A stretch of 64,000 bases of DNA from an uncultured Candidatus Micrarchaeota archaeon (GCA_963804385.1 CAWDQD010000007.1:100-64099); one strand, 5' to 3'. Counted from the stretch's first letter, positions 8,083 through 50,989 are shown. Notes: generated by a model from the sequence alone, not told the origin. Numbers and translations: made by a program.

Positions 8083-8104
8083 TCTCCAAATTGGAAGCGT
8101 TCTC

Positions 8105-25657: not shown

Positions 25658-25723
25658 ATTCCTTTTGGTTTTTTTCAACAGATTTATAAGTCATAACTCC
25701 GTCATCAGATGAGAGGTGGAATC

Positions 25724-28795: not shown

Positions 28796-28874
28796 GCGAA
28801 TCTTCTCTTTGGGTCTGGTCTATGGCATATTTGACGGGCCTAAAACATTTAAATGTAGCTACGGATTATTCAAT

Positions 28875-31031: not shown

Positions 31032-31952
31032 CAGCGGCACCAACCTGAGCCTCTTCCTCACGTCAGGAGGTCTGAATTCCATTTACGCGAATAATACCGC
31101 GATCGGCTGTGATTGGGCGATCATATTCGGCGGCTGGGGAAATAACGTAAATGCCACGCCAGTCCGGAACAGCACGATATCAGGCAACACCGTGATCAAT
31201 TTCAATAGCGGATCCGAAGCGTTCGTGGTCAACGGAACCGGAAACAATATCACCGGCAACCTTGTAGAAGGGACTGGCGAGGATAGCGGTACTTTCGTGC
31301 TGGACGGTTCATGGAACCTCATGGCGGGGAACACAGTCACGAACAACTACGAAAATGCATCTCTACATCCTGGGAGACAATAACCTTATAATCAACAACT
31401 CCGCCCTGGATGACAATAATTCCGGTTTCGCGATTACCTCTCGCAGAACGATACGTTCATCAACAACACAGCCGCAGGCAATGGTGAGAACTACGGCGCG
31501 GGGTTCTACGTATACGCTTCAAATATCACCATGTCAGGAAGCCATTTCTACAACAATACCCTGGACTTCGACGTTCAGGGAGTGGTCAACGTCAGCACGT
31601 CTGATTTCAATATGACTAATTCAATCTTCGACAATCCATCCGGCACCATGGCCGACTTCACCAATCTGAGCATCAACGACAGTGTGAATCTACTGGCGAA
31701 GAATACTCCATATACTGGTCCACCAACTCATCAGTGCTTCCAGCGGGCAAGCTCTCATTCGCCCAGAAGTTCGTGAACATCTCCACCGTGAGCGGCACGC
31801 CATCGATAGATTCCCTGGTGTGGAGCTGGACCGATTCAGAATCCGCCGGGCACACAGAATCCAATTTCGCTCTCTATAAATACAACTCCAGCGGATGGAC
31901 CAGCTTGAACAGTACTCCGAATACCGTCGGCGGACACATTGAGCCTCCATAG
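30991..31952 (+). pseudogene. module 2 of the giant surface protein, broken by about five frame changes
   Basis: Consecutive overlapping ORFs start at positions 28746, 30991, 31355, 31531, 31734 and 31939, whose values mod 3 are 0, 1, 2, 1, 0 and 1. Together they spell one homologous module: FDNPSGTMADFTNLSINDS / LPAGKLSFAQKFVNISTVSGTPSIDSLVWSW / MNPGSIYGILE. Confidence 0.7.
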
Positions 31953-34900
31953 CATGAACCCAGGTAGCATCTATGGCATACTCGAGCCATCATCCACTAT
32001 AAGCGGTTGCGAACAGATAAGCACTCCGGGCTCCTATGTGCTCACAAGCACCTTGACCGGCACTGACGGCGCGATACCATACTATTCCGGTTACTTCACC
32101 ACGTGCATCCTGATAAACAGCACATCCAATGTCGATATCAATTGCCAGGGGAACACGATCAATGTATCCGGCTTCGAGTTCTACTACCTCGAATTCGACA
32201 CCGCCATGGCTATAGAGAATTCGACCAACGTGACAATACGGAACTGCAAGTTCGATGTCAGCACCTCAGACGGATTGGCGCTTAATGTAGACACCAACAC
32301 AATGTTCCGGAACAACACGGCATTCGGTTACAACCCCAATTACAATACCACCGCGTTCTATGGCGGAAGCTATGATGGTGAGGATAGCGTGAACACGAGC
32401 TTCATCAACGACAGCGCCTCCGGCGTCTACAGGTTCGTCGGGATCTCAGGCTACAATTCCACATACGCGAACAACACTGCGCTGAACACCGTTTCCTCAG
32501 CGTTCTACTACGGGGCAGGTGTGCTTGACAACAGCACGGTCAGCGGAAACACGGTGACCAACTGCTCTGAGTTCAGCATCGTGGGCTCCGGCGACAACAT
32601 CACGGACAACCTGATCAAGAACGACCACTACATTGGATTAGACATCGCAGGTATAGACTACGGGGGCAACCTGGTGAGCGGAAACAACGTCAGCGGGACA
32701 ACCGGCACCGACGCATACGAAGGCGGCAGCGGATTTGTTCTAGATGGGCTTACTAATGCACCAGCCACACTGGTAAATAATATAGCGTATAACAATTCCG
32801 GGCCGGGGTATCTCATATTCCAGGATACGGACCTGAACGTCCTGAACAACGATCTCGCATACAACAACACGATCGGTTTCAGCGTAAGGGGCCAATATAA
32901 TCTCGCAAGCATGGTCAATCCTGGATATACCTTCGGAGTCGGCGCCCCCACATTGCAGCTGTGCGATAACGAGAGCAACTGCTTTGATATGCCAGTATCC
33001 AACAACCTCTCGAATGACGTGGCCGTGAACAACACCTATGCAGGTTTCTATACCGTATTAGGATTATCCACCACGTATCTCAACGACACAGCCACGGGCA
33101 ACGGTTACGGTTTCCTGATATCGAACTCCAACGACACAGTTCTCTCGGGCATCCACTTCTACAACAACTCGAACGACTTCATGTTCAACAACACCGCCAG
33201 CCAGTCCAACTACACCATGGTCAACTCCATCTTCGACAACCCGAAGGGGAGCATGCAGAACTACACCAACCTCTCCATCAGCGATACCGTAGCCATCACC
33301 GATGCCTACACCATAAACTGGAGCAGCAACTCATCATCGCTTCCAGCAGGCAAGGTCTCCTTCGTACAGAAATTCGTCAACATCTCGACAGTGAGCGGCG
33401 CGCCGTCCATAGACTCCATAGTCTGGAGCTGGCTAAGCAGCGAGCTCACTGGCTACAATGTGAGCCGGTTCCAGCTCTGGAAATACGATTCCAGCGGCTG
33501 GTCTTTGCTGAACAACACTCCGGGCGCCACCGCCCTAAGCCTCGCAAACATGAACCCCGCGAGCATCTACGGTGTCCTTCAGGACAATGACACGACACCA
33601 CCAGTGGTCAATCTCATCTCTCCGGTGTCGGGAGCTATAACCAATCTCACAGCGATGAATTTCACCTTCAATACGACTGACGACTCTTCGCCCACCATGA
33701 ACTGCTCGATGTACTTGGATGGCGCAGTGAACCAGACCAATTCATCTGTCCAGAACGCTACGACCACGATGTTCCAGGTTTCAGGCATATCAGACGGCGT
33801 CCATACCTGGAATGTCACGTGCATGGATCAGTCGAACAACCGGGGTTCATCAGCAACGAGGAACTTCACGGTAAATACGGTAGCCCCGTCAGTAACCCTC
33901 AATTCCCCAGCCAACCTCTCGATATTCAATGTCTCGAGCGTGAACTTCAACTTCACGACCGTGGACAACCTATCCTCGACAATGAACTGCTCCATCTTCC
34001 TGGACGGAGCACTCAACCAGACCAATGCCTCGACGAGCAATAACACCGCTACGATCTTAACCATAAGTGGGATACCAGACGGCTTCCACTACTGGTCGGT
34101 CCAGTGCAAGGATAATGCCAACAACGTAGGCACGAGTGTCAAGAGGAACTTCACGGTCGACACCACGGCTCCGGTAGTAACCCTCAATTCCCCAGCCAAC
34201 CTCTCCATATTCAATGTCTCGAGCGTGAACTTCAACTTCACGACCGTGGACAACCTATCCTCGACAATGAACTGCTCCATCTTCCTGGACGGAGCACTCA
34301 ACCAGACCAACGCGGCTACAGCCAACAACACACCAACGCTCTTCACGATCAGCGCCATCCCAGACGGCTTCCACTACTGGTCGGTCCAGTGCATAAGCAA
34401 TGCGAGCAACGTGGGCACGAGCGTCAAGAGGAACTTCACGGTAGATACGGTGCCCCCGACAGTCACCTTGAATTCCCCAGCCAACCTCTCGATATTCAAT
34501 GTCTCGAGCGTGAACTTCAACTTCACGACCGTGGACAACCTATCCTCGACAATGAACTGCTCCATCTTCCTGGACGGAGCACTCAACCAGACCAACGCGG
34601 CTACAGCCAACAACACACCAACGCTCTTCACGATCAGCGCCATCCCAGACGGCTTCCACTACTGGTCGGTCCAGTGCATAAGCAATGCGAGCAACGTGGG
34701 CACGAGCGTCAAGAGGAACTTCACGGTAGATACGGTGCCCCCGACAGTCACCTTGAATTCCCCAGCCAACCTCTCGATATTCAATGTCTCGAGCGTGAAC
34801 TTCAACTTCACGACCGTGGACAATCTATCCTCGACAATGAACTGCTCCATCTACCTGGACGGAGCACTCAACCAGACCAATGCGGCTACAGCCAACAACA

Positions 34901-36375
34901 CACCAACGCTCTTCACGATCAGCGGTATCCCGGATGGATACCACCTCTGGTCAGTCCAGTGCGCGGACAATGCGGACAATGTGGGTACTAGCGTGGCGAG
35001 CAACGTCGCGGTCGATACAAGTATACCCGTAATCCAGCTCAATAGCCCAGTGGGCGGAGCCACAGTGACGACTTCCACGGTCCCGTTCAATTTCACCGTA
35101 GTGAGCAATTTCTCAGCCACGATGAACTGCTCGCTGTACCTGGATGGCAACCTCACTGCGACCAATATCTCGGCAGCCAACGATACCGCAATATCATTCA
35201 GCGTATCAAGCGTAATGGATGGGAGCCACAATTGGTCAGTATCCTGCATGGACATATCATCGAATGTCGGAGTCAGCGCAACTCAGAGTTTCATAGTGAA
35301 TACGTTCACCAGCGAACCGACCAACCCTCCGACGTTGCCTCAGCTCTCTGCCAGCCTCTCCAGCAACTGCACGGGCAATGTCGTCACCGTGTCTAACGGA
35401 GGCTCGCAGATAAGCGGCGTCACCGTCATAGTGGATGACGCCTCTAGCTTGGGTACATTGTACTCAGGAACCTCTGACGACAGCGGCCATCTGAACTTCT
35501 CGGGATGCGGCCTCAGCGTAAGGATAACGGTTGAGAAAGACGGCTACCAGACGGAGCAGTTCAACGAGCAGACCGTAGCGTGCGGGCAATGCGTACAATG
35601 CACGCAGGACAGCGACTGCCCTGATGCCGATAGCTGCGTCAACCAGAGCTGCGTGGCTGTCCAATGCAGCTGCGGCCAGATAGCCAATCATACGTGCAGC
35701 GCGTACGGATGCTGCTCTGACAGCCAATGCCCATCCGGCCAATACTGCCAGGGTCACACCTGCCAATACCCGAGCACTACGACGTCTAAGCCGGTATATC
35801 AATGCACATCGGATGGAGATTGCGCCAGCGACCAATCATGCAACATCCCGGCCGGGGCCAAAGGAGGCAACTGCCAGCAGATCACCGGATGCGGCGCGGT
35901 GGCCAACCATGTCCTGAGCCCGTACCAATGCGGTTCGGGTCCTTATTGCCCGTCCTGCGGCGATGGCCAGATCTGCCTGGATAACGTGTGCAAGAGCTTC
36001 GATCTAAGGGGACCAAGTTCAGGATTCATAGGAGATGCCCCTAGTGTGCAGGCGCTGGAGGATAATCTTACCTGCAGTGGATGCGACCTGAGGATAACGG
36101 ATCCGACCGGGAAAGTCCTCACAGGGAAGACGGACGCGTCCGGCAACTTCTCATTGCCGTTGAAGGTGACCGGTACATATACCGTCGCGTATATGAAAAA
36201 CGGCACCGTGGTGAAGACAGTGGAGATCAATGCGCTGCCAAAATCCGCTCCGCTATTGCCTTCGCTCCCTACAACGGTAATATCCAATCAGAACTGGTTC
36301 CCATGGATGCTCCTGCTGCTCATAATAATCGCGGTGGCACTCTACTGGTTGAGGATAAAGAAACCTAGAAAATGA
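31939..36375 (+). CDS. giant surface protein, C-terminal part: beta-helix module 3, six Ig-like repeats, Cys-rich region, C-terminal TM anchor
   Basis: 1478-aa ORF. Its first Met lies inside the conserved MNPGSIYGIL element, so it is not a true start. Six 95-aa repeats. CxxC-rich segment CGQCVQCTQDSDCPDADSC.... Terminal WFPWMLLLLIIIAVALYWLRIKKPRK. Confidence 0.8.
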   Translation: MSLHSMNPGSIYGILEPSSTISGCEQISTPGSYVLTSTLTGTDGAIPYYSGYFTTCILINSTSNVDINCQGNTINVSGFEFYYLEFDTAMAIENSTNVTIRNCKFDVSTSDGLALNVDTNTMFRNNTAFGYNPNYNTTAFYGGSYDGEDSVNTSFINDSASGVYRFVGISGYNSTYANNTALNTVSSAFYYGAGVLDNSTVSGNTVTNCSEFSIVGSGDNITDNLIKNDHYIGLDIAGIDYGGNLVSGNNVSGTTGTDAYEGGSGFVLDGLTNAPATLVNNIAYNNSGPGYLIFQDTDLNVLNNDLAYNNTIGFSVRGQYNLASMVNPGYTFGVGAPTLQLCDNESNCFDMPVSNNLSNDVAVNNTYAGFYTVLGLSTTYLNDTATGNGYGFLISNSNDTVLSGIHFYNNSNDFMFNNTASQSNYTMVNSIFDNPKGSMQNYTNLSISDTVAITDAYTINWSSNSSSLPAGKVSFVQKFVNISTVSGAPSIDSIVWSWLSSELTGYNVSRFQLWKYDSSGWSLLNNTPGATALSLANMNPASIYGVLQDNDTTPPVVNLISPVSGAITNLTAMNFTFNTTDDSSPTMNCSMYLDGAVNQTNSSVQNATTTMFQVSGISDGVHTWNVTCMDQSNNRGSSATRNFTVNTVAPSVTLNSPANLSIFNVSSVNFNFTTVDNLSSTMNCSIFLDGALNQTNASTSNNTATILTISGIPDGFHYWSVQCKDNANNVGTSVKRNFTVDTTAPVVTLNSPANLSIFNVSSVNFNFTTVDNLSSTMNCSIFLDGALNQTNAATANNTPTLFTISAIPDGFHYWSVQCISNASNVGTSVKRNFTVDTVPPTVTLNSPANLSIFNVSSVNFNFTTVDNLSSTMNCSIFLDGALNQTNAATANNTPTLFTISAIPDGFHYWSVQCISNASNVGTSVKRNFTVDTVPPTVTLNSPANLSIFNVSSVNFNFTTVDNLSSTMNCSIYLDGALNQTNAATANNTPTLFTISGIPDGYHLWSVQCADNADNVGTSVASNVAVDTSIPVIQLNSPVGGATVTTSTVPFNFTVVSNFSATMNCSLYLDGNLTATNISAANDTAISFSVSSVMDGSHNWSVSCMDISSNVGVSATQSFIVNTFTSEPTNPPTLPQLSASLSSNCTGNVVTVSNGGSQISGVTVIVDDASSLGTLYSGTSDDSGHLNFSGCGLSVRITVEKDGYQTEQFNEQTVACGQCVQCTQDSDCPDADSCVNQSCVAVQCSCGQIANHTCSAYGCCSDSQCPSGQYCQGHTCQYPSTTTSKPVYQCTSDGDCASDQSCNIPAGAKGGNCQQITGCGAVANHVLSPYQCGSGPYCPSCGDGQICLDNVCKSFDLRGPSSGFIGDAPSVQALEDNLTCSGCDLRITDPTGKVLTGKTDASGNFSLPLKVTGTYTVAYMKNGTVVKTVEINALPKSAPLLPSLPTTVISNQNWFPWMLLLLIIIAVALYWLRIKKPRK
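33595..35304 (+). repeat. six tandem 285-bp (95-aa) repeats; the central copies are almost identical at the DNA level
   Basis: Repeat starts are 33595, 33880, 34165, 34450, 34735 and 35020. Copies starting at 34165 and 34450 are identical by eye except for about the first 20 nt and one later base. Confidence 0.9.
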
Positions 36376-36503: not shown

Positions 36504-37628
36504 ATGACAATACAGAGATCTTTCAGAGCGGTGGGAGAGGACACCACGATCGTGGGCAAGACCCAACCCTGGTCATATAGCGACAGCAAGTTCAGGAGAT
36601 CGATTACACTCGAATTCCATCCTTCTTCCAAGTGCGGATTCTCATGCCTGCACTGCCAGGGGTTGCCATACCGGAAAAGCTGGGGGGATACGCCTCCGAA
36701 GATGCCCGTGGCCCTTGTGGATCGGGTTTTCTCTGCCTATGACAGCAGGCCGGATAAGAGCGTCGGGATGTGGAGGGTGATCATCTCCGGCATGACTGGG
36801 GAGCCGACACTGAATCCGACAGTGACACGCTCCGTGATCCGGAAAGCGAAAGAGCGCGGGATAGCCGCCGGATTGTCCACCAACGGCATCCTGCTCGGAG
36901 CGGAAGACGTCGATCTCATGACGTCCGATAATACTCCTGACGACTGGCTGAACCTCAGCGCCGACTCCCCTCTCGGGGCCGACCCCCGCCTGGATGATAT
37001 ATTCTGCCGGGCGCATGGATGCAATGGCGGAGCGCTCGGCCGGTTCATGGAAAACCTGGAGGGAGCTGCCGAAATAAAATCCAGGAAAGGGTCTTCGATG
37101 CAGATCAATGTCGATTGGATAATGTCCGACCTTTCATTCGATTCCGGCCACATCCGCGATGACGTCGTAGGGACCATCGAGTACCTGAATTCGCTCCGAG
37201 GCGTCTCACTGCTGCGCCTCCAATTCCCGTTCTATCTTCATCCGCAGGTCCCGCGATTGAATGATGCGAACAGCTCGGAATTGGCCGAAGCATTGAAAGA
37301 CATGATTGAAGGCAAAATCATTTTCCCTGGGCTGCGACCTGATTTCGTAGTCAAGCTGAGGAATAACTGGTACAAGCGGCTACCGGGGATCAGCGAGTGC
37401 TCGGCTGCAAGCGACTACGGGGTTGTGATAGGTCCGGATTCCCGCGTCTACCACTGCCCGTATCTGGCTGCCCCGGCATTCGAAGAGGCCAACGCTCCGC
37501 TTGCCGGCGTGACTCCGGAAAATCTCTGGGGCATGCTCGATAAACTGGGCCCGATCAAGGCGCTCAGCAGGTGCAACGCGGTCTGCATACTGAAGGATTG
37601 CTTCGTTGGAACCGGAATCATCAGGTGA
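36504..37628 (+). CDS. radical SAM enzyme A
   Basis: CX3CX2C cluster CGFSCLHC, then GMTGEPTLNP. C-terminal Cys set: C..HC...RCNAVCILKDC. Confidence 0.8.
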   Translation: MTIQRSFRAVGEDTTIVGKTQPWSYSDSKFRRSITLEFHPSSKCGFSCLHCQGLPYRKSWGDTPPKMPVALVDRVFSAYDSRPDKSVGMWRVIISGMTGEPTLNPTVTRSVIRKAKERGIAAGLSTNGILLGAEDVDLMTSDNTPDDWLNLSADSPLGADPRLDDIFCRAHGCNGGALGRFMENLEGAAEIKSRKGSSMQINVDWIMSDLSFDSGHIRDDVVGTIEYLNSLRGVSLLRLQFPFYLHPQVPRLNDANSSELAEALKDMIEGKIIFPGLRPDFVVKLRNNWYKRLPGISECSAASDYGVVIGPDSRVYHCPYLAAPAFEEANAPLAGVTPENLWGMLDKLGPIKALSRCNAVCILKDCFVGTGIIR

Positions 37629-37632
37629 TGAA

Positions 37633-38988
37633 ATGCTTGCGCAGAAGAACATACTGTTGAACTCTAGGAAAGAGATATTCCGAATCGCCGAGCCTGACCG
37701 GCTGGTGAAGGCCGATCGGCTTTCAACGGAAGAGAAGAAAATCCAGGGATTGACTTCGTTGCAATACTATTTCAGACCGTTCTGCGGCATCATCGCCGCG
37801 GTGGATGACAGCATCCGCTCGCGATGGGACGCCCACCCGAACGACTTCTATCCCCTATCCCCGCTGGATTACGCTTCGGCGGTGGAGAAGTTCCTGAGGG
37901 GGGAGCGGGTGATGCCATTGCAGATATTCACGACCCTCACCAACCGCTGTAATTTCTCCTGCGCGCTCTGCTTCAGCAGGAAGGATCATGAGGGCAAAGA
38001 ATCGCACGATCTCTCCGCAAGCACCTATATCCAGACGCTTGAGTACCTCCTGAGTTTCGGCGGCCCTCTCGCGCAGAACATCTCCTCGGGCGCATCCGGG
38101 GAGGCCATACTCCACAAGGATTTCGACCGTATCATGGAATTCTCAGGAGATAAGGGGATCCTCACTTTCCTGACCACCAACGGAAGCAGGTCCGATCCGG
38201 ATTTCATCGACTGCGTGGCCAGGAACTCGTCCATCCTTACCTTCAGCATCCACGGGATCCACGAAGACGCGTTCAGGAAACTGGAGCGCCCCCCGGCAAG
38301 CATCACGCTCGAGAGGATATTGCGCACAATCGAATCCGTGGTGAGAAAACGGGAAGAGCTCGGGCGCTCGAAAGACATGATAGTCGGAGTCACGTCCCTC
38401 GTCCATCCGGATAATCGCGGGCATTTCATAGAGTTTGCATCGAGGCTTGCCGAGATCGGGGTGGATTACGTGCATTTCAACCCGATCCTTCCGAACCTTA
38501 AATCCCACAACATAATATTTTCTGAAGATGCGTGCCGCAGGGTCGAAGCGGAGCTCCTCCTGCTGCAAGGAATCTTCTCCGGATCCCAGACATACGTGCG
38601 GTCGCCCCTGAAATTCGATCAGAAACTCGATGATCAGACGTATTATTTCGACCCTACCGGCAGGAAAGTCCCCGAGACCTGCCTGATCGCCCTGCTACAG
38701 CCGAGCATCCATCCGATGTACGGAACTGATACCGCGAAGATGACCGCATGCCGATTCTATCCTGACGTGACCGAGAACCCGGACTTCTGGTACTCTTCGG
38801 AACTAGGGCCCCTCAGCTTCGAATCCGTCTGGACACAGGATAATCTCGCCCGCATCCAGCGGCAGACCATGAAATGCAGCGCCTGCTCTTCCCAGAGGCA
38901 GCTGGCGGAACTGGACTGGATGCTCCACACCAAAAAGTCGCATCCTAACGCGGAATTCTACCTGGACTTCTCATCCGAAATGCCTTAG
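37633..38988 (+). CDS. radical SAM enzyme B
   Basis: Start MLAQKN is 5 nt after the stop of enzyme A, preceded by AGGTGA. CX3CX2C cluster CNFSCALC. C-terminal cysteines (ETC, ACRF, KCSAC). The 3' end overlaps the convergent gene by 18 nt. Confidence 0.8.
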   Translation: MLAQKNILLNSRKEIFRIAEPDRLVKADRLSTEEKKIQGLTSLQYYFRPFCGIIAAVDDSIRSRWDAHPNDFYPLSPLDYASAVEKFLRGERVMPLQIFTTLTNRCNFSCALCFSRKDHEGKESHDLSASTYIQTLEYLLSFGGPLAQNISSGASGEAILHKDFDRIMEFSGDKGILTFLTTNGSRSDPDFIDCVARNSSILTFSIHGIHEDAFRKLERPPASITLERILRTIESVVRKREELGRSKDMIVGVTSLVHPDNRGHFIEFASRLAEIGVDYVHFNPILPNLKSHNIIFSEDACRRVEAELLLLQGIFSGSQTYVRSPLKFDQKLDDQTYYFDPTGRKVPETCLIALLQPSIHPMYGTDTAKMTACRFYPDVTENPDFWYSSELGPLSFESVWTQDNLARIQRQTMKCSACSSQRQLAELDWMLHTKKSHPNAEFYLDFSSEMP

Positions 38989-41655
38989 CTGGTCCATGAA
39001 CACCGAAGTCCTGAACTGCCCTGCCGCGGGAAGGCCGGATACTCCATTCGATTTGAACCCGCCGGTCGGGCCGATAACCAGATCCGCTTCGCCCAGGCGG
39101 TCCCTTATGTATCTGGCGTATGTGGCGTCGTAGACCATCATCTGCTCTTTCGAAGGGAGCAAAGAGTCGAGGCCTTTCCTCCTGAAAAGTATCTGCCTGA
39201 AACATAGCGAAGGCGCCCAGACCTCCCGCGGGAAATCGAACGCGATCGTCAGGTCCCATCCCATCCCGTGATTGAACTCCGGGGCCAGGATCCATGTCCC
39301 TTCATACAATAATCTTTCCCCGGAACTCTCACGCAGGTCGTTCGCTATCGCAGGCATGTCATAGCTCGGTTCGACCTCGGTGATCCCGGACATCATCTGG
39401 CTCTCCCCGCCCTGCTGGACCTTCCGGTATCTATCCAGGTTGACCAGCTTGAGATCCATGCCGCGAAGCAGCTGGTTGCGCAGCATCGTTTTTCCGGTCG
39501 CGGGGTGCCCTCCCAAGCGTATCCGCAGCGGCCTTCCCAGCCCCTGCTCCATCCTCCCTATCACGCCTGACAGGTCTTCCGCGAGGGAATGGACGTCGAT
39601 GACCTGCCTCAATGGATCCATCTTCAGATCCTGCGGCCCGATCCCGGCTGCCGCGAACCTCTCCGGGTTCATGCCGGCGAGCTCTTCCACGTGGTCGTTG
39701 TACGCCTGTATGGCTTCCCCGTATGTCCCGTCGATGAATGCGTGCCGCATCCTCCGTTGCAGGGCGGATGGCGTCTTCGCGAACGGGCGGACGTTCCTAG
39801 ATTCCGCGCACATGTGCTCGTCTATGAGCCATTCCGCCTTCTCCGCGAGCTCATCATCACCGGCGGCATGGGCGGTGGCCCAGAACAGGGCGAGGGATTT
39901 CACGTGAGTGGAGAATGTCTTGAACGGGTACCTGTACCCGAGGAATCTCAGGATGCTCTCCTGCTTGGCGAGCGCATCGTCCGCGAATCCCTCCAGTTCC
40001 CTGTTGGTGTAAACCATCTCGGACTGCTTGTACGGCGCCCGCATCCCCGGCCTGTCGAGCATCCCGTAGCCGATCCTTCCCGGATGCTTGCGCATCGCCC
40101 TCTCGGACGCGTACATGCGCGGCACCACGTTCACCGTGGCCCCCTTCCCGATGAAATCGAGCGCCCTGCTCACCGTATGCAGCACGTCCGCGGGGCGGTC
40201 GTTGAACCCCCCGAACAGTATCATGTTCATGCCCGGCGTGATGCCGGCGTCGATGACCGCCTGCAGCACGTTCTCGTTCTGCTCGACCGTTATCCCCTTG
40301 TCCATGCTGTCAAGCGCGCCCTGCACGAAACTCTCGTTGCCGAAGTATAACCGTTTGAACCCCGCGCGGGCGAGAAGCCCTATGAATTCCCCATCCGGCA
40401 CATCGGAATCGCGGCTGACGCAGAATTCGTTGACCCTCCCCTTGCAGGATTTCCTGATGCCCTGGAGCCCCTGCCTTATCACCTCGCGGCAGAATTCCTC
40501 CACCACGTCCCTGTGGGTCGTGAAATTGTTGTCGAATATCTGCACGGCGTCATGGGGTTCGTGGCCCTCGGATGTGCCTTCCTGCAACTCCTTCCTTATC
40601 CTATCAACCGCAGCCCGCGCGGCTTCGATCCTCTCTTCCTTCCCCATCCTCATGGTGTTCCTGGGGGTGTCGCAGAATACGCATTTGCCCCGGCAATGGT
40701 CCGTGATCGTTATGGCGATCGGTTTCGAGCCGATATGGTCTCCTTGGACCGTGGCTTTCTTCTTGCGCGCCCTGACATACGTGGTCCCGTGGTAGACGTC
40801 CTCCTTCCGTATGGGCACGTCCTCCGGATGGCTCTCCAACGACGTATTGGCGGGCCTCTTCAGGTCATCCGCGTGCGTGACCTTCCCGTCCTCATATATC
40901 CATATCCCTCCCAATGCGGAGAGCCGCTCCTTCTTGAAAACCGTCTCAGCGATGCGCGCCAGCGTTCTCTCGCCCGGACCTTTCACGACCACGTCAACCG
41001 GGAACGAGCGGAGGAACTCCTCGGGAGGGATGCTGAAGAATTCCGGGCCTCCGGCCACCCTCAACGCATCCGGATTGAGCCTGCCGACCCGCGTCATCAC
41101 CTCCACGTCGTTCTCGAGGACTATGGGGCACATCCCGATGATGCCGAATCTTTCGTTGGCAAGTATCCACTCCAGCCTATCGAGCCCGCCCAGGTTCGGG
41201 TTGTACACCCGCGAATCGACGAAATCCGTCTCCCTCAGCATGAAATGGCTGAGATTCTCGACGCCGTATTCCGGATCGATGACCCTGAGCTCGCCTTCGA
41301 ACGCCCCGTAGGACGCGATGATGAGCATTTTCAAGAAATCTTGCCTGGCGGATATGCCGTACCTGGAGAATGCGTCTTTATCGCCACCTATCGTCTCCCT
41401 GAACGCGCCTTCTATGTCCGATTGCGTATGCTGCCTGAGCGACAGGAGCACTTCGGTATCCCATATCTCCAGGAGGGCCTTCACGAAATCCCTAGGGACA
41501 GCGACAGGCATGGTGCCCCTGCGGAAGCCGTATGCAATGCCCCGGCTTTCGACTTCGTTCTCGAGTATCTGTCCGCGGAAAGGCGCCCTTCTGTAGAATA
41601 GCACGTTCGCCTTCTGCAAAGACAGGGCATCAGAAGCGCTTTTGATCAGCGTCAT
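38971..41655 (-). CDS. B12-binding-domain radical SAM enzyme fused to a uridine kinase/PRK-like P-loop domain
   Basis: Start MTLIKSAS, with an ATGA overlap at 41652-41655. Rossmann-like FGIIGMCPIVLEND...VDVVVKGPGERTLARI. CX3CX2C cluster CRGKCVFC. C-terminal Walker A GGHPATGKTML followed by LVNLDRY. Confidence 0.75.
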   Translation of the reverse strand: MTLIKSASDALSLQKANVLFYRRAPFRGQILENEVESRGIAYGFRRGTMPVAVPRDFVKALLEIWDTEVLLSLRQHTQSDIEGAFRETIGGDKDAFSRYGISARQDFLKMLIIASYGAFEGELRVIDPEYGVENLSHFMLRETDFVDSRVYNPNLGGLDRLEWILANERFGIIGMCPIVLENDVEVMTRVGRLNPDALRVAGGPEFFSIPPEEFLRSFPVDVVVKGPGERTLARIAETVFKKERLSALGGIWIYEDGKVTHADDLKRPANTSLESHPEDVPIRKEDVYHGTTYVRARKKKATVQGDHIGSKPIAITITDHCRGKCVFCDTPRNTMRMGKEERIEAARAAVDRIRKELQEGTSEGHEPHDAVQIFDNNFTTHRDVVEEFCREVIRQGLQGIRKSCKGRVNEFCVSRDSDVPDGEFIGLLARAGFKRLYFGNESFVQGALDSMDKGITVEQNENVLQAVIDAGITPGMNMILFGGFNDRPADVLHTVSRALDFIGKGATVNVVPRMYASERAMRKHPGRIGYGMLDRPGMRAPYKQSEMVYTNRELEGFADDALAKQESILRFLGYRYPFKTFSTHVKSLALFWATAHAAGDDELAEKAEWLIDEHMCAESRNVRPFAKTPSALQRRMRHAFIDGTYGEAIQAYNDHVEELAGMNPERFAAAGIGPQDLKMDPLRQVIDVHSLAEDLSGVIGRMEQGLGRPLRIRLGGHPATGKTMLRNQLLRGMDLKLVNLDRYRKVQQGGESQMMSGITEVEPSYDMPAIANDLRESSGERLLYEGTWILAPEFNHGMGWDLTIAFDFPREVWAPSLCFRQILFRRKGLDSLLPSKEQMMVYDATYARYIRDRLGEADLVIGPTGGFKSNGVSGLPAAGQFRTSVFMDQLRHFG

Positions 41656-42956
41656 AGTCCATCCTCGCTGAAGATGAACGCGGAGGTTATGCCGTACCCC
41701 TCCCTGCCACGATAGAGGAGGTCCGTGCATCCGATCCTATCGATGAGAGCGACCTTGCCGTTTTCGAGCTGCCCTAGCCGCTGGTCCCCGCCGTTCGACA
41801 TCAGCAGCCCGTCCCTGATGTTCAATCCGAATGCCCGCGAGATCCTGAGCATGAGCTCCGCGACCTGCTCCACCATCAGCCCCTTCCTTGAGAAATCGGT
41901 GTATACCTTCAGCATGGACAATGTTTTCCCGTCATAGTCCATCCCGATCATGGAATGTCCGAAGCATGATCGCTTGAGTGCTATCCACAATCTTCCCTGG
42001 TGGAGGTCATACTCGTCCCGGGAATATCCTGCATCGCCCAGCTTCTCGACGACTACGTCCTCCTGTTCACTCACGTGGAACGTCACGTGGTCCCCGCGTA
42101 TCACGCTCCTGATCAGCGGATCCAGCCTGTTCGTCTTTGCGACGAGGTTCTTGCAATCCTGCTCGGATGCCAATCTCGAAAGCTCGCTCATCTGGGCAGT
42201 ATCCACCAGCCCATGCAGCATCTGGATGTTCGCCTCGAAGATCCTCCTGTTGATGGAGGCCAGGTAAGGCAGCTTAACGATATGGCTGAAATCGCCCGCG
42301 AATTCAGACGCGAGCGGCCGCTTGGTGTCCCTGTCGCAGCATAGGAGTCCGACCGGGTCTCCGCCCTTTATCAGCTGCTGGCCGTACACCGCGTGCGCCA
42401 CCCATTCCGGTATGCGGTCGAGCTCCAGGGCTCCAATCTCCGGGGAACCGCAGTCCGGGATTATTAGCGCGGTCTGGGGGCCGAGGAACCTCTCGCGGTA
42501 ATGCTGGTGCAGTTCCCCGTCGGTGTATATCCAATGCCCGAGATTCCAGAACAGGTTCCCGTTGGCATCGGTCACCATCGCTATCTTCTCGTCAGGGAAA
42601 CTCTCCTTGTGCCTAGCGACGTAGTCCTGGGGCGTGGAGCGCCGGAATAACGATGAGATCTGCCCGAAATACTCATCCATCCTCCCTCCAAGGTTCCCAT
42701 CTATGCAGCCCCTCACTGTGCCGTCGCCCCATGCATAACCGCTGGCGCGGGAATTGACCGCGGGGGTGATTTTCGTCCTCTCGGTGTCGACCATGGCGAA
42801 ATGGAAACCTACCATGGAATCCTTCATGATCTCGCCTTCGAAGAGGCTGATGCCGCTCCAGTCGCTCTTGCTCCTCATGCTCACGGTGCCGAACGGCATG
42901 TCGAATGCGGCCGGCGGCTTGTATCTCAAGCTCGGGGTCATCACGCCCGGCATCAT
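41652..42956 (-). CDS. hypothetical protein; the C-terminal third resembles phosphodiester glycosidase (NAGPA/DUF2233)
   Basis: Start MMPGVM, with an ATGA overlap at 42953-42956. HSMIGMDYDGKTLSMLKVYTD...GLMVEQVAELMLR..GLNIRDGLLMSNGGDQ resembles the family pattern R-x-x-G..dG..l.lv.vdG...G.tl.ela.lm...G...A.nLDGGGS, from memory. Confidence 0.45.
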   Translation of the reverse strand: MMPGVMTPSLRYKPPAAFDMPFGTVSMRSKSDWSGISLFEGEIMKDSMVGFHFAMVDTERTKITPAVNSRASGYAWGDGTVRGCIDGNLGGRMDEYFGQISSLFRRSTPQDYVARHKESFPDEKIAMVTDANGNLFWNLGHWIYTDGELHQHYRERFLGPQTALIIPDCGSPEIGALELDRIPEWVAHAVYGQQLIKGGDPVGLLCCDRDTKRPLASEFAGDFSHIVKLPYLASINRRIFEANIQMLHGLVDTAQMSELSRLASEQDCKNLVAKTNRLDPLIRSVIRGDHVTFHVSEQEDVVVEKLGDAGYSRDEYDLHQGRLWIALKRSCFGHSMIGMDYDGKTLSMLKVYTDFSRKGLMVEQVAELMLRISRAFGLNIRDGLLMSNGGDQRLGQLENGKVALIDRIGCTDLLYRGREGYGITSAFIFSEDGL

Positions 42957-44236
42957 ATGAACGACGTCCCTCCGGGATCCCCAGCGTTCCTTATGACGTC
43001 CAGGAATGCCTGGAACTCTTCGATCTCGCGCTCGGCCAGCCTCCCTTCGGAACTCAGCACTCCAAGGAGCGTGTTCGTCCGGTGGATCTTGCATGTGGGA
43101 GGGCAGACGCCGATCCTGCCTATGGCCGCTTTCCTCTCTACGGATTCCCATACCCTCTCCAATGGCTGCGAACGCAGGTCCCCGAGCAGGAAATCAGGAT
43201 TGCCGTCGCGTTCCGAGCACAGGTAGACGCGCCCGTCGTATGCGATGCTCGCCGCCCACGGGTGGCCGAGGCATGATTTGCAGTCCTTCCCGCCTATGGG
43301 CTGGCCGGCCGCGGCATCAACGAAATAATCATCCGCGATTATCGGGACGATCGGGTATCCGGATAATATCGCCTTCACTTCCTGGAAGTTCTCAATCGCC
43401 CTTCGAGCGACGTCCTGGGTTATCTGCTTCCTCAGGTCGCATCCGCTCTGCCCGTAATTAAGGACCGGGCGGTATCCGATGTAGCTGACCAGGGCCTTCG
43501 GATCCTTATCCAGCAGCTCCTTCGCGAACAGTGCGACGCTTCGCATGAATTCCACGTTGATACCGTTCACGATCATCCCGAGGCCGAAGCTCGTCTCGGT
43601 CCCGGAGAGCGCTGTCGCCATGAGCCTGATGTTCTCCTTAGCTTTGTGGTAAACCGCAGGATTCTTTATCCTGTGGAATCTCAGGTAATTCTCCTGGTCC
43701 GCGCTGTTGAAGCTCACCCTCACGAAACTTATGTTCGATTCGGCCAGGTCGGCGGCTTTCGCTTCATCGAACAGCGTGCCGTTCGTGAAAAAGCCGGTCT
43801 CGAATCTCTTCTTGCCCGCATACTTCAGGCCGTCTATGGTGCGCGGGTTGGTCATCGGTTCCCCGCCCCCTGTGAATATCACGCCGTTGACTCCTGCGTC
43901 TCCTATCTTGTCGAGCAGGTCCGTCATCACCTCGTACGGCATTATCCGTTTCCCGGCATCGGAGATCGTGCGCTCTTTCCAGAGCCGGTAGGTGCAATCG
44001 CCGCAGCTGAGGTTGCACTCCAGGGACGGCACGAGCTCCACCGTGATCGGTGTGACCTTCTCCGGCTCTCCGCGCAATACGTGCCCGATCCGTTCGCGGT
44101 GCCACAGCGCCTTGATATGGTGCTGCATGCCGATCGGGAATTCCGGCTTGAGCAATGAGATGACCCCGCGCTCCAAGCGGGCCAGCCGCTGATCAGCGCT
44201 GATTCTCGACTCTAATACTGGAATGAGCGTCTTCAT
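42953..44236 (-). CDS. radical SAM enzyme C with SPASM/twitch-like C-terminus
   Basis: CX3CX2C cluster CNLSCGDC, then FTGGGEPMTNP. C-terminal CKSCLGH...YLCSERDGNPDFLLGDLRSQPLERVWES...VCPPTCKIH. Own TATA (minus-strand aatataag, plus 44292-44299) and GGAGGGG upstream. Confidence 0.85.
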   Translation of the reverse strand: MKTLIPVLESRISADQRLARLERGVISLLKPEFPIGMQHHIKALWHRERIGHVLRGEPEKVTPITVELVPSLECNLSCGDCTYRLWKERTISDAGKRIMPYEVMTDLLDKIGDAGVNGVIFTGGGEPMTNPRTIDGLKYAGKKRFETGFFTNGTLFDEAKAADLAESNISFVRVSFNSADQENYLRFHRIKNPAVYHKAKENIRLMATALSGTETSFGLGMIVNGINVEFMRSVALFAKELLDKDPKALVSYIGYRPVLNYGQSGCDLRKQITQDVARRAIENFQEVKAILSGYPIVPIIADDYFVDAAAGQPIGGKDCKSCLGHPWAASIAYDGRVYLCSERDGNPDFLLGDLRSQPLERVWESVERKAAIGRIGVCPPTCKIHRTNTLLGVLSSEGRLAEREIEEFQAFLDVIRNAGDPGGTSFI

Positions 44237-44318: not shown

Positions 44319-44831
44319 CTATCCCAAAACGCTGGAAAACGGCTTCTTGAAGCCCGCCGGCGCTTTCTCCCACGCGGTTTCCAGCGCAAGATAGCCCGCG
44401 ACCCCGATGGCCATCCCGCCGAAGACGTCGAAGAATGTATGCACTCCCAGATAGACCCTGGTGAACGCGACGAACACGGCGAATGCGGTGTATATCCATC
44501 CGTTCGGTTTCTTCCATAATCCTGCCGCGAGGGCGAACGCGACGACCGCATTGCTGCTCGGGAACGAATAGCCGTCCGGGCATTGCACCTTGGATGGGAT
44601 CAACAAGCAGGGCCGTTGCTCCTGGACCAGGTATTTCACTCCGGTCCCCAGAAGATAGACGATCACGAGCGCCAGTATGAGGCGATTCCGCTTCTTGCCC
44701 TGTTCGGCGATGAACGCGATGATCAGGACGATCGCCAGGAACAGGAAGTCGTTGTCGATGAGCTGGGCTATGGGGGTAAGCAGGGGGATGCTCAGCTGGC
44801 TGGCCCACATGGTTATGATATCGAGCATCAT
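44319..44831 (-). CDS. PAP2-family phosphatase (candidate dolichyl/polyprenyl-diphosphate phosphatase)
   Basis: Motifs KYLVQEQRP, SFPSSNA (PSGH position) and FTRVYLGVHTFFDV (SRxxxxxHxxxD position). ATGA overlap with the AglB stop at 44828-44831. Confidence 0.7.
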   Translation of the reverse strand: MMLDIITMWASQLSIPLLTPIAQLIDNDFLFLAIVLIIAFIAEQGKKRNRLILALVIVYLLGTGVKYLVQEQRPCLLIPSKVQCPDGYSFPSSNAVVAFALAAGLWKKPNGWIYTAFAVFVAFTRVYLGVHTFFDVFGGMAIGVAGYLALETAWEKAPAGFKKPFSSVLG

Positions 44832-47779
44832 TTCCCCGTGTAGTACTGGTCCTGCATCCTGAAGATCCTCACTTTCGGCGAATCATAGACCAAATCGAAA
44901 CCAGGGATCGAGCCTAGCATGAACCCCTGGTACAGCGTGGAGCTGTAGAACGGGGTGGTCCGGTAGGCGTAGCTGCTTATCGGGTTGCCCAATGCATCGG
45001 TCCAGAGCTGCTCGTTGTCGTATATGGCCACGAACTGGAGGATGTTGTTGCTGTTGCTCGTGAGGATCCATCTTGCCGGGTGCAGCTGGAGGCTGCCGTC
45101 CTGGGTCTTGTTGTCGAGGTCGTATGTAACCAGGGCCTGCTGCCCGTTTATGGTCCCGACCACTCCGCAGTAGGCCGGAGGAGTGCTGTTCGAGGCGTAA
45201 TCCTCCTTGTAGACCAGGAAGCCCGTCAGGTTGGCCGAAACCGCGCATGCGGTCCCTCCCTGGGCCGGGGCGATTATGGTCTCCCACATGTGGTCTAGCT
45301 CGCAGGTCGATGTGCCGGGATCATGGTTCACGTCCGTCTGGTTGGCGTAGGCGCACGCGAGGTAGTTGAGCGCGCTGTACTTGCCTCCGAAGGAGATGTC
45401 CTGGTTGCTGTTGCCGCTGCCGAGCACCTCGATGTCCATCAGGGCGTACTGCGAACCGTATGCATTCATGGTGTTCCTGAGGTTGGACGCGTCTCCGTCC
45501 AGATAGGCGTAGGCCGTCGCCCCTATCATGTCCGAGCTGGCATGCTCGTTGCGGAGCACGGTGTCATGCATGCCGAAGAAGTTGATCCAGTGGCCATAGT
45601 CCCACCAGGATATGATGCGGCCGTCCGCAGGCACGTTGTCCTTTATCCATTCCATGGAGCTCATCCAGTAGTCCGGTATGAACGAGCAGCGGTATTGGAT
45701 GCCGCCCATTAGCTCCGGCGCGATGCCGGCAGAAGCGTTCCCGTCCAGGCTGTAGATGCACAGATCCTGGCTGAAGAACTGCACCGGGTCCGTTGTTATA
45801 TTGGCGATGTTCTGGGAAGCCGCGCAGAGAAGCGGGTTGGTCTGGCAGTAGCCGGCGAACCTGGCCGCCGTGGCTTGCGGAGCCTGCGTGAACGTAGGCG
45901 TGAAAGAAGTGAGCAGGATGCTGCCGCCCATCGATGGCGCCGGCGCTATCGGGAAACCCAGCTCCATCATCAGGACCAATACGACAAGCACCCACATGAT
46001 CGCGTTCAGGTCCGGTATCCTGCCTTTCAGCAGGTCGGCCGCCTCGCCGAAGACCGCCACCGTGGAGAATATCAGCGTCATGCCTAGGTATGTTATCAGC
46101 TTCTCCTTCTCGAGGCCCATGAACGTTATGGGGAGGATGAAGGATAGCAGCAGCAGAGCGTATATCGGCCACTTGCCTGTTTTGGCCGCCTTGAAGAACG
46201 ACACGAGCAGCAGCAGGATGCCCCAGAAGAAAAAGAGCGTCATCAGGGTGTCCGAGCGCTCTATTATCGGGAAATTGGCGGGTGCGCCGTTGGAGAATGT
46301 CAGCAGCGCGTTGAGCACCGAGGCTGTCCCGTTGAACAGCAGGTTGAACAGTATCGTGGGTATGGCGTTGATGAGGCCGACGGCGGATGTCACGATCCCC
46401 AGGGATCCCGTGCCTGTGAGCTGCATGGCGACGAATCCCAGCGTGTCGTCATAGACCGCCAGGCCCGGGGCCTGCTCGGCTATAGTCCTCTCGAGCGGCT
46501 GGGTATATGCGCCCCAATCCTCGTACGCGGTCATGAACTGCGCGAAGAACGACGTGTGCATGAAGATGAAACCCAGCACCACCAAGGAGCCGATCACGGC
46601 CCCGATGCGCTCGGTCTTGCCGATTTTCGGCGCGTAGCGGTCGAATACGAAATCCACCGCGAGCGGGAACGCCAGCGCGAGAGCGGGCAACCCGACATTC
46701 TCGAGGATGCCTTCGATCCCTGCCTTCAGATCCACCTGCGTCGAATACACGGTCAGGATGATCTGGACCAGGAGCATGCCGGCAAGGATCATCGCGAGCT
46801 GCTTGTTCCCCTTCTCATCCTTCTGCTGGATGTGGCGCAATCCCATGCAGAAGAAGAACACCGCGAGGCAGAAAGTGATGAGTATGTCCACGTTCGAGCC
46901 GAGCACCACGGCCCCGTAGGCGACGATGGCTAGCAGGGTGAACCTCATGGATTCGCGTTTGAGGGCTATGTAGAACATCGCGAGGAAGAAGAACAGCGCG
47001 AAGATGCTGTAGGGGACGATCTGCGCGTCGCCGCCCTGGAACTTGAGGAGGAAGAACGGCATGAAGGCCGTGAGGCCTGCCGCGAGTATGCCTGCGCGCT
47101 CGTCGTACATCTCCCTGAAGAACAAGTAGATGAAGAACACCGCGAGCCCTGCGGCGAGGGGCGGATAGACCGAGCCCACGCCGGTCAGGGTATAAGGCGA
47201 ATATGGCGCCTGCCCGTTGTACAGCGAGAACCATGGGGCGATCAGGTATTTGTAGAGCGGCTGGCCGAGGTGGTTCGACACGGTGAGCGGATACCACCCG
47301 GTCATGTCGTCGGCGAAGTTATGGCCGACCGTCACTATCTGGTGCACGCCTTCCAGGTAGAAGTACGGGTCCAGCTCGTAGAGCAGCCCCCCGGAAGAGG
47401 AGAGCGCGAGCCATACGGAGAGCGCGAGTATGAACAGCATCCCGATGGCCGGTGCGTTCGATTTGAGCGTGGCTATGTTCAGGCTCTTCATGCGCTCCTG
47501 GACGTCAGGGAACACCTTGTCCTTGTAGAGGAGCGCGACTCCTGCTATGAAGACGATGCCCCAGTTGATGAATATCCACGGAGTGGAATACAATATGCCT
47601 ACGAGGGATTCGAGGGTGAAGAGCAGCGGTACGGCGACCCAGCCCAGCGTATAGCCTATGAGCGTCTTGTCGATCGCGGATAGCTTCTCCTGGCGCAGGA
47701 ACCAGAACGCTAACGGTATGCCTGATGCGCCGAACGCCAAAGCGATCACGATTACCAATGGGATATCTGTGAAAAGCAT
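44828..47779 (-). CDS. aglB: archaeal oligosaccharyltransferase AglB (STT3 family)
   Basis: 983 aa. Multi-TM N-terminal half, WWDYGHWI catalytic motif and a large C-terminal soluble domain. Confidence 0.9.
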   Translation of the reverse strand: MLFTDIPLVIVIALAFGASGIPLAFWFLRQEKLSAIDKTLIGYTLGWVAVPLLFTLESLVGILYSTPWIFINWGIVFIAGVALLYKDKVFPDVQERMKSLNIATLKSNAPAIGMLFILALSVWLALSSSGGLLYELDPYFYLEGVHQIVTVGHNFADDMTGWYPLTVSNHLGQPLYKYLIAPWFSLYNGQAPYSPYTLTGVGSVYPPLAAGLAVFFIYLFFREMYDERAGILAAGLTAFMPFFLLKFQGGDAQIVPYSIFALFFFLAMFYIALKRESMRFTLLAIVAYGAVVLGSNVDILITFCLAVFFFCMGLRHIQQKDEKGNKQLAMILAGMLLVQIILTVYSTQVDLKAGIEGILENVGLPALALAFPLAVDFVFDRYAPKIGKTERIGAVIGSLVVLGFIFMHTSFFAQFMTAYEDWGAYTQPLERTIAEQAPGLAVYDDTLGFVAMQLTGTGSLGIVTSAVGLINAIPTILFNLLFNGTASVLNALLTFSNGAPANFPIIERSDTLMTLFFFWGILLLLVSFFKAAKTGKWPIYALLLLSFILPITFMGLEKEKLITYLGMTLIFSTVAVFGEAADLLKGRIPDLNAIMWVLVVLVLMMELGFPIAPAPSMGGSILLTSFTPTFTQAPQATAARFAGYCQTNPLLCAASQNIANITTDPVQFFSQDLCIYSLDGNASAGIAPELMGGIQYRCSFIPDYWMSSMEWIKDNVPADGRIISWWDYGHWINFFGMHDTVLRNEHASSDMIGATAYAYLDGDASNLRNTMNAYGSQYALMDIEVLGSGNSNQDISFGGKYSALNYLACAYANQTDVNHDPGTSTCELDHMWETIIAPAQGGTACAVSANLTGFLVYKEDYASNSTPPAYCGVVGTINGQQALVTYDLDNKTQDGSLQLHPARWILTSNSNNILQFVAIYDNEQLWTDALGNPISSYAYRTTPFYSSTLYQGFMLGSIPGFDLVYDSPKVRIFRMQDQYYTGK

Positions 47780-50913: not shown

Positions 50914-50960
50914 GACGATTCCCCCCGGTTTTCCGGACAATTCCATGAACCGTCCAAGGA

Positions 50961-50968
50961 TTATAAAT
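50961..50968. promoter_or_regulatory. shared TATA element TTATAAAT between divergent ALDH and dUTPase genes
   Basis: 22-29 nt upstream of the dut ATG (50990, leaderless-type). On the other strand it lies 48-55 nt upstream of the ALDH start at 50913, which is preceded by GGGGGG. Confidence 0.45.
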
Positions 50969-50989
50969 CTTTGGCGGCCTTTCCTATAC

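Follow-up and report, generated by a model that had tools for sequence, protein, structure and literature searches.

Gene D and its locus

The DNA analyzed in this study is a 64,000-nucleotide stretch from an uncultured Candidatus Micrarchaeota archaeon (GCA_963804385.1 CAWDQD010000007.1:100-64099), which is referred to below as the window. It contains gene D, whose predicted protein combines the parts of a cobalamin-type (class B) radical S-adenosylmethionine (SAM) enzyme with a C-terminal P-loop domain that resembles the kinases of the PRK/uridine kinase/PanK group. Gene D lies in a cassette together with genes A, B, C, and E (Table 1).

Table 1. Positions in the window of the cassette genes, of the segments and motifs of the gene D protein and of the genes upstream of gene A
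Feature	Position	Strand	Remarks
Gene D	38971..41655	-	class-B-type radical SAM with C-terminal kinase domain
Gene D, N-terminal domain	41206..41655	-	~150 residues, conserved; no family match, poorly modelled
Gene D, cobalamin-binding-type Rossmann domain	40870..41205	-	~residues 151-262; motifs, weak Pfam/NCBIfam matches, Foldseek
Gene D, radical SAM partial TIM-barrel core	40063..40725	-	residues 311-531; Pfam, model, invariant Cys
Gene D, CX3CX2C cluster motif	40672-40695	-	C321/C325/C328 (CRGKCVFC, 321-328)
Gene D, helical bundle	39538..40023	-	residues 545-706 (~160 residues); AlphaFold model
Gene D, PRK/uridine-kinase-family P-loop domain	39046..39537	-	residues 707-870; profile, fold, motifs
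Gene D, Walker A motif	39487-39510	-	GHPATGKT, 716-723
Gene C	41652..42956	-	orphan protein, 434 residues; ATGA-coupled on both sides; cassette marker
Gene A	42953..44236	-	radical SAM/SPASM enzyme, 427 residues
Gene B	37606..38988	+	second radical SAM enzyme, 460 residues; kept in the cassette elsewhere
Gene E	36504..37628	+	radical-SAM-like protein, 374 residues
PAP2-family phosphatase gene	44319..44831	-	undecaprenyl-diphosphatase-like; 83 bp upstream of gene A, same strand
AglB/STT3 oligosaccharyltransferase gene	44828-47779	-	upstream of the PAP2 gene; same order in locus L001

Translation of the reverse strand gave gene D as one uninterrupted open reading frame (ORF) of 894 codons plus stop, and a plus-strand reading of the same interval was ruled out by its many stops. 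A mechanical ORF list also offered an earlier start at ATG 41730 (919 residues), which was ruled out by the alignment of homologues and by the ATGA coupling. The start at ATG 41655 was accepted because all homologues begin at this position and because this ATG overlaps the stop codon (TGA) of the upstream gene C as ATGA. Gene C is likewise coupled by ATGA to its own upstream gene at 42953-42956. Gene D thus closes a translationally coupled trio, which consists of the SPASM radical SAM gene, the gene for the orphan protein and gene D. Gene B is convergent with gene D and overlaps its 3' end by 18 bp. The coordinates and the 894-residue ORF given in an earlier note on this DNA were borne out by the reverse-strand frame, the starts of the homologues and the ATGA overlap; the strand, which that note had left unstated, is the minus strand.

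Three orthologues with the same fusion were found in other samples. They were 901 to 915 residues long, collinear with the gene D protein over the full length and 74, 53, and 43% identical to it, so that the fusion occurs as a continuous frame of 894 to 915 residues in four independent assemblies of different samples. Moreover, gene D is tiled, free of substitutions, indels or joints, by contigs of four independent soil metagenome runs. These contigs jointly span 39241-40342 except for a 20-bp gap at 39696-39714, and the junction between the helical bundle and the kinase domain (39540-39780) lies within this span. Because four assemblies share the fusion and the soil-run contigs tile it without differences, gene D is not a chimera; the joining of two genes by assembly, which the earlier note had named as a possible flaw, is answered by the same contigs. 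Residues 625-706, which occur only in the fused forms, were also conserved among them in the alignment. Although the orthologues that lack the kinase domain stop near residue 620 and a fragment from the same organism is frameshifted within that domain, it is highly improbable in view of these results that the long ORF is an artefact, either of two genes joined through misassembly or of a stop codon lost by sequencing error. Gene D encodes a genuine single polypeptide. The frameshifted fragment (P0015) is a 78-residue database sequence that is identical to part of the kinase domain in the window (residues ~724-788) and is frameshifted at its end, probably because a different assembly of this organism contains an error due to low coverage.

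Domain organization of the gene D protein

The gene D protein consists of five segments: an N-terminal domain, a cobalamin-type Rossmann domain, a radical SAM barrel, a helical bundle and a P-loop kinase domain. The earlier note had recognized three parts. All three of its domain calls stand and all of the motifs it quoted are present in gene D, but its count was too low, as it missed the conserved N-terminal domain. The helical linker of roughly 200 residues that it placed before the P-loop domain is indeed helical and forms a bundle of about 160 residues in the model. Other than the cluster motif and Walker A, the located motifs were GMCPIVL (174-180), AGGPEF (201-206), GPGERTL (226-232), and LDRYR (740-744).

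The match to Pfam Radical_SAM (PF04055) scored 51.4 bits against a curated cut-off of 29.5 (E=1.8e-13), and C321, C325, and C328 were invariant in all nine aligned sequences. By profile and cluster motif, the gene D protein belongs to the radical SAM superfamily, as the earlier note had read from the CRGKCVFC motif.

The cobalamin-contacting motifs in OxsB, TsrM, and TokK are defined as a downstream GxSxL-type motif, GG and GE (PMC9204698). Gene D contains all three in forms that fit these definitions, as GMCPIVL, AGG (201-203), and GPGE (226-229), respectively. The patterns G(M/L/F)(C/S)P..(L/V/F/M), (A/M/L)GG, and G(P/E/G/R)GE recur in every aligned orthologue of the gene D family, and G202, G228, and E229 were invariant across the nine aligned sequences, one of which is a distant class-B paralogue. 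In addition, the NCBIfam matches, which were weak and ranged from 12 to 38 bits, were all to class-B families, including HpnJ, BchE, MJ_0865/QCMT, TsrM-type, PhpK, BzaD, and HpnR, and most of these alignments began in the B12 domain and continued through the radical SAM core. The NCBIfam cut-offs of these named families (250-750) were not reached, the best match being HpnJ with 37.9 bits versus 577.6; judged by these scores, the gene D protein belongs to none of them.

A full-length AlphaFold model was built on an alignment of five sequences. Its predicted local distance difference test score (pLDDT) was 55 and its predicted template modelling score was 0.52. Residues 312-531 formed a beta/alpha barrel with a pLDDT of 80-94, the helical bundle was modelled well and the C-terminal alpha/beta domain moderately well, and residues 1-311 were unusable with a pLDDT below 50. 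The top Foldseek matches of this model in the PDB were TsrM (E=3.3e-8), OxsB (6.7e-8), AprD4, CysS, and MgmA. Those to TsrM, OxsB, CysS, and MgmA ranged from 3e-8 to 3e-5 over 490 to 610 aligned columns, in a model whose first 311 residues have the low pLDDT just given. Phosphoribulokinases (5.3e-5) and human UCK2 (5.8e-4) followed further down the list, on the C-terminal part. The gene D protein is placed in the cobalamin-type class B by its motifs and probably by its fold. The cobalamin-binding-type, Rossmann-like region proposed in the earlier note agrees with the motifs, the NCBIfam alignments and these structural matches.

The C-terminal kinase-like domain

In Pfam and NCBIfam, the isolated C-terminal domain matched just AAA_33 or Zeta_toxin with E above 0.03 and reached no kinase model. 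In the full gene D protein, AAA_33 was also below its cut-off (16 versus 27 bits). A profile made from the domains of the four fused proteins was collinear with the uridine kinase of Thermus thermophilus among PDB sequences, with an E of only 0.25. An exhaustive hidden Markov model (HMM) search with the domain profile against 1.84 billion representatives recovered only the gene D fusion family and one convincing free-standing relative; the family members were two other clusters at 50% identity and one fragment of the window's own protein. The free-standing relative, P0017, is 335 residues long and matched profile positions 7-194 (E=3.3e-5), and hhalign linked it to the kinase domain with 96% probability. 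By itself, P0017 matched no solved kinase. With P0017 added, the five-sequence profile matched the Thermus uridine kinase 3asy (E=1.9e-6), 3c8u (3e-5), and the phosphoribulokinases 6kev and 6hzk (1.7e-4). The match to uridine kinase was therefore significant only after P0017 had joined the profile. It comprised two collinear stretches, 29-67 and 102-189, which cover both halves of the domain. The identities between the kinase domain and solved kinases were 13-19%.

A separate model of the domain alone, built on a five-sequence alignment, had a pLDDT of 67. Its best 50 Foldseek matches were mostly type I PanK, UCK2, PRK, Thermus uridine kinase, and NRK1, and also included other P-loop kinases, namely shikimate kinase (ranks 2 and 17), hCINAP, and CMP kinase. 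The E values of the fold matches ranged from 6e-6 to 9e-4 and the template modelling (TM) scores from 0.30 to 0.55 overall, with 0.42-0.55 for the families named first, whose matches reached 6e-6 to 1e-4 at a TM score near 0.5. PanK, UCK2, PRK, uridine kinase, and NRK1 recurred with the full-length model.

The residues invariant in the four fused proteins were G716, G721, K722, and T723 of Walker A, D741, Y765-D766, E785-G786, R820, R825, K827, and A857-D858. Aligned with uridine kinase, D741 coincides with the Asp of 'MDHYY', E785 with the 'LEG' strand and R820, R825, and K827 with the 'R..ERGR' lid. The order of the elements is also collinear with that of uridine kinase: Walker A, an Asp after strand 2, YD, the EG strand, the lid R..R.K and a final ADxxI strand. 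By comparison with UCK2, D741 would be the catalytic base, E785 an acidic residue of the Mg site and R820, R825, and K827 the phosphate-binding lid. Profile and fold place the P-loop domain in the PRK/uridine kinase/PanK group as a divergent member, one that is too divergent for Pfam PRK by that family's own threshold, and to judge from its conserved residues it looks catalytically competent.

The uridine/pantothenate/phosphoribulo-kinase-type assignment made in the earlier note is upheld by the five-sequence profile and by Foldseek searches with two separate models, and the GxxxxGKT and lid residues whose conservation it questioned are invariant in the fused proteins. A match of this region to a P-loop kinase model, the other point on which its assignment hung, was found with solved kinases by profile and fold and not with the Pfam kinase models.

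Composition and distribution of the cassette

BLAST comparison of the window's proteins with loci recovered through the fusion and its upstream neighbour (about 11 loci) showed that the cassette recurs. Joined by one or two more radical SAM genes, the trio is found as a cassette in unrelated metagenomic genomes. Across the cassettes, the polypeptides were about 430 residues long for A, 440 to 500 for B, 413 to 435 for C, and, in some loci, about 370 for E. Orthologues of gene E were found in L001, L004, and L010, which makes it an optional member. At L013/L014 (6881-12773), extra radical SAM genes (one of 719 residues and one of SPASM type) and a gene for a metallo-beta-lactamase-fold protein of 838 residues were observed near the cassette.

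Searches of Pfam, NCBIfam, PADLOC and PDB sequences gave no match for the gene C protein. It was present in only 13 protein clusters among 5.8 billion, and the cassette is therefore very rare. Its conserved motifs are ANGNLFWNLG, TVRG, SNGGD.R, and YGITS. Its loose resemblance to NAGPA phosphodiester glycosidases had an hhalign probability of just 12% and serves as a lead only. The NCBIfam matches of gene A were all weak; they included PqqE, MftC, WgkB, and sactipeptide maturases, and those to tetrapyrrole, sugar and nucleotide enzymes were equally good.

Four of the 11 gene D proteins examined possess the kinase domain. The other seven end at 602 to 640 residues, inside the helical bundle (around residue 620). 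The shared 600 residues gave a neighbour-joining tree in which the four fused forms clustered with weak support (54%), beside a form without the kinase domain. This tree fits a single gain of the kinase domain without proving it.

A scan of a genome collection found the gene in only one species representative, a Micrarchaeota metagenome-assembled genome (MAG), and the contig of the nearest relative, L001, comes from a MAG that is labelled Candidatus Micrarchaeota. The window also encodes a CDC48-type ATPase, the STT3/AglB oligosaccharyltransferase and a RuBisCO large subunit, which fits an archaeon.

Neighbouring genes and the wider window

Genes related to phosphate transfer were found beside several cassettes. 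At L011/L012, where gene D lacks the kinase domain, a gene for an APH-family kinase (Pfam E=1.1e-11; 7677-8633, plus strand, in L011) stands just upstream of gene A and on its strand, and it may be a non-orthologous replacement of the fused kinase function. The association with PAP2 was seen only in the window and its closest relative L001, where the counterpart is a short, possibly truncated ORF of 90 residues with BLAST similarity to PAP2 and no Pfam match; PAP2 is thus a possible, not conserved, partner of the cassette. A gene for a PTP/dual-specificity-type phosphatase is near the cassette in L002 (4475-5110), so that phosphatase genes stand beside two or three of the four fused cassettes. 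Together, these neighbours, each a single observation, suggest that the addition and removal of phosphate is a recurrent accessory of the pathway.

Other neighbours with phosphate esters or nucleotides as their substrates were each observed at one locus only. The cassette is adjoined by a gene for a NAGPA phosphodiester glycosidase in L010 (2-844) and by one for a SLOG/LOG-like protein in L004 (8492-8908).

Elsewhere in the window, the RuBisCO large subunit gene (25709-27142, plus strand; Pfam E=2e-88), presumably of archaeal form III type, is about 12 kb from gene D, and no link between the two was shown. The plus-strand radical SAM genes are preceded by two large ORFs (28746-31031 and 31939-36375, both plus strand) that probably encode surface proteins, the first with NosD/beta-helix repeats and the second, of 1478 residues, with Big_13, CarboxypepD_reg, and Ig-like domains. 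A further radical SAM gene of 388 codons (6916-8082, plus strand) lies outside the cassette. An aldehyde dehydrogenase gene (49453-51078, minus strand) is a single ORF of 541 codons in the window and is split into ORFs of 231 and 247 codons in L001 (940-2401), which could reflect a pseudogene or a sequencing error. Finally, an ORF of 360 codons (57381-58463, minus strand) had weak matches to Sigma70 region 2 and region 4 (35 and 31 bits, respectively), which is odd for a window that otherwise looks archaeal.

Comparison with known systems

TsrM was the best match of the gene D protein both by structure and by sequence among PDB entries (6wte, E=0.016). The class-B methylases TsrM, CysS, and MgmA/QCMT share the GG and GE motifs with gene D; different from them, gene D possesses an extra N-terminal domain and the C-terminal kinase domain.

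OxsB of the oxetanocin A pathway (PDB 5UL2-5UL4), a cobalamin-dependent radical SAM enzyme and the second-best structural match, has a domain order that corresponds to the first four segments of gene D, the likeness of the N-terminal domains being one of position, as the gene D model is poor there. In sequence the two resemble each other only marginally (56 residues, phmmer E=0.17), and the cluster motif is CX4CX2C in OxsB and CX3CX2C in gene D. OxsB acts on dAMP, dADP, and dATP (PMC9204698) and so sets the precedent of a class-B enzyme dependent on a phosphate handle. Different from gene D, however, OxsB has no kinase domain and its partner is the HD phosphohydrolase OxsA; the scan of cassette neighbours revealed no HD-domain gene.

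Fusion of a radical SAM enzyme with a kinase has been described for viperin, which is linked or fused to a P-loop kinase (CMPK2) from which it receives its substrate, a phosphorylated nucleotide (bioRxiv 10.1101/2023.09.13.557418). In those fusions the radical SAM part has no cobalamin domain and the kinase is of the CMPK2/NMP type, whereas gene D combines a cobalamin-type enzyme with a PRK/UCK-like domain. Moreover, the gene D protein had no match among the PADLOC models, including pVip and pVip-kinase (PDLC02905), for which the neighbouring radical SAM proteins gave generic matches of 15 to 48 bits. By domain types and profile searches, gene D is not a viperin-kinase fusion.

In the sinefungin pathway, SinF phosphorylates what the B12 radical SAM enzyme SinC has produced and a phosphatase later removes the group, which constitutes a cryptic phosphorylation. 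SinC and SinF, which are likened to gene D here from their description, are separate proteins of an actinobacterial cluster with other partners than those of the cassette.

Similar to the UCK/PRK/PanK kinases in profile, fold and motif order, the kinase domain of gene D differs from them in being fused to a radical SAM enzyme and in lacking a Pfam PRK match. No description of a fusion between a class-B radical SAM enzyme and a PRK/UCK-type kinase was found in the literature; analogous fusions with canonical kinases may exist. As far as the HMM search of the 1.84 billion representatives goes, the architecture is rare, with just the gene D family found as such a fusion.

Proposed function and alternative explanations

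We give an even chance to the explanation that, in gene D, a class-B radical SAM enzyme has captured a kinase of the PRK/UCK/PanK group that phosphorylates a small sugar- or nucleoside-like substrate of the pathway. The kinase domain, using ATP (K722/T723 of Walker A, E785) and with D741 as base, would phosphorylate a hydroxyl of such a substrate or intermediate, and the class-B radical SAM half would then work on the same molecule. There, SAM would be reductively cleaved at the [4Fe-4S] cluster held by C321, C325, and C328, a hydrogen would be abstracted from an unactivated carbon and the substrate would be methylated or rearranged with cobalamin in the Rossmann domain, beneath the cap formed by the helical bundle. 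The phosphate could be a recognition handle required by the radical SAM site, for which OxsB and viperin/CMPK2 are precedents, or a cryptic protecting group on the radical SAM product, as with SinC/SinF. The remaining enzymes of the cassette would carry out further radical steps. For the kinase activity, the use of cobalamin, the kind of substrate and the sequence of the steps, the chances appear about evenly balanced.

The earlier note had also suggested a phosphorylated or nucleotide-type substrate handled within one polypeptide. That suggestion is still an inference, with some support from the APH gene beside the cassette that lacks the fused kinase and with the qualification that most orthologues lack the domain. 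Salvage of 5'-deoxyadenosine by the kinase was considered and rejected; this compound has no 5'-OH for UCK-type phosphorylation, and the domain is missing in most orthologues.

Several results weigh against the proposed kinase function and chemistry. Seven of the 11 gene D orthologues do without the fused domain, so that the core chemistry does not require phosphorylation by it. The neighbouring kinase and phosphatase genes, each present in one or two loci, could be chance neighbours. At the level of family models, the B12-binding match (PF02310) was below the Pfam cut-off (17.7 versus 32.1 bits, E=0.0033) and covered profile positions 65-120 only; Pfam PRK (PF00485) gave no match up to E=10 with the full protein or with the four isolated domains; and the kinase domain matched AAA_33 with 14-16 bits and reached no Pfam kinase model. 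AprD4, whose B12-like domain is not known to bind cobalamin, is among the best structural matches. The ribose-contacting Arg166 of UCK2 has no conserved equivalent in gene D. Furthermore, both structural models are of low to moderate confidence (pLDDT of 55 and 67), with unreliable packing of the domains in the full-length one, and are too weak for placing the kinase site relative to the radical SAM site.

The alternative that survives best, although we regard it as unlikely, is that the cassette matures a macromolecule, such as a ribosomal peptide, a protein that might be the gene C product itself, or an RNA, with the P-loop domain binding or phosphorylating this large molecule and not a small metabolite. 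Gene A is of the radical SAM/SPASM type that is frequent among peptide maturases, to several of which it has its weak matches, and the cassette places several radical SAM genes around one conserved orphan that does not look like an enzyme. However, tetrapyrrole, sugar and nucleotide enzymes matched gene A equally well, and the invariant polar and Gly motifs of gene C (ANGNLFWNLG, TVRG, GGD.R, YGITS) are typical of an enzyme. Nor was a conserved short ORF found across the cassette loci, where the tight coupling leaves no room for one, and the relatives of the kinase domain (UCK, PRK, PanK, NRK1) are small-molecule kinases rather than protein or tRNA kinases.

Somewhat less likely still is that the P-loop domain is no substrate kinase and serves as a nucleotide-binding module for regulation or cofactor handling, for example as an ATP-dependent gate or as a helper in loading cobalamin or the cluster. 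The strong divergence of the domain, with no significant Pfam kinase model, its dispensability in most orthologues and the missing counterpart of a ribose-contacting Arg of UCK2 would all suit such a module. The invariance of the base Asp, the Glu of YEG, the lid Arg/Lys residues and Walker A, however, is unexpected in a mere nucleotide sensor, and the kinase found beside a cassette without the fused domain is a non-homologous one of small-molecule (APH) type. A CobA-type corrinoid adenosyltransferase was rejected, as its P-loop fold was absent from the 50 best fold matches of the domain model.

It is improbable, more so than either of these two alternatives, that in this archaeon the cassette acts to modify a glycan linked to lipid or else the polyprenyl carrier of the adjacent oligosaccharyltransferase, with the kinase and PAP2 cycling the carrier phosphate: AglB/STT3 and PAP2 do stand directly upstream on the same strand, in an order repeated in the Micrarchaeota relative L001, but this link occurs just in two close genomes, whose proteins are 74-84% identical, and in none of the nine other cassette loci, the gene D protein has no evident membrane segment and PRK/UCK-type kinases are established to act on soluble substrates.

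Returning to the capture of a small-molecule kinase by a class-B enzyme, a broader proposal can be built on it, which we offer tentatively and with less confidence than the capture itself. The five genes of the cassette, with three or four radical SAM enzymes and an orphan enzyme without detectable relatives, might constitute a previously unknown pathway to a heavily radical-modified, transiently phosphorylated derivative of a sugar or nucleoside, either a new antimetabolite or a new cofactor. The pathway would operate in a DPANN-type archaeon, where a phosphatase gene adjoins it, as well as in a few microbes of soil and sediment that are unrelated, with the fused kinase as a built-in device for cryptic phosphorylation or substrate channelling.

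Implications

Class-B radical SAM enzymes catalyze some of the hardest reactions in biology, such as methylations and rearrangements at unactivated carbons, yet for the majority the substrate is not known. That nature has fused one of them to a small-molecule kinase is a strong hint at the class of substrate, one with a phosphorylatable hydroxyl of the sugar type. It is also an experimental handle, as screening for kinase substrates is far easier than the discovery of radical SAM substrates. If the broader proposal is true, the built-in device for cryptic phosphorylation or channelling would be unprecedented among class-B radical SAM enzymes. The reduced genomes of Micrarchaeota-like archaea are considered poor in secondary metabolism, which makes the presence of the cassette in such a genome notable. 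Very rare and accompanied by an orphan family without detectable relatives, the cassette may encode new chemistry.

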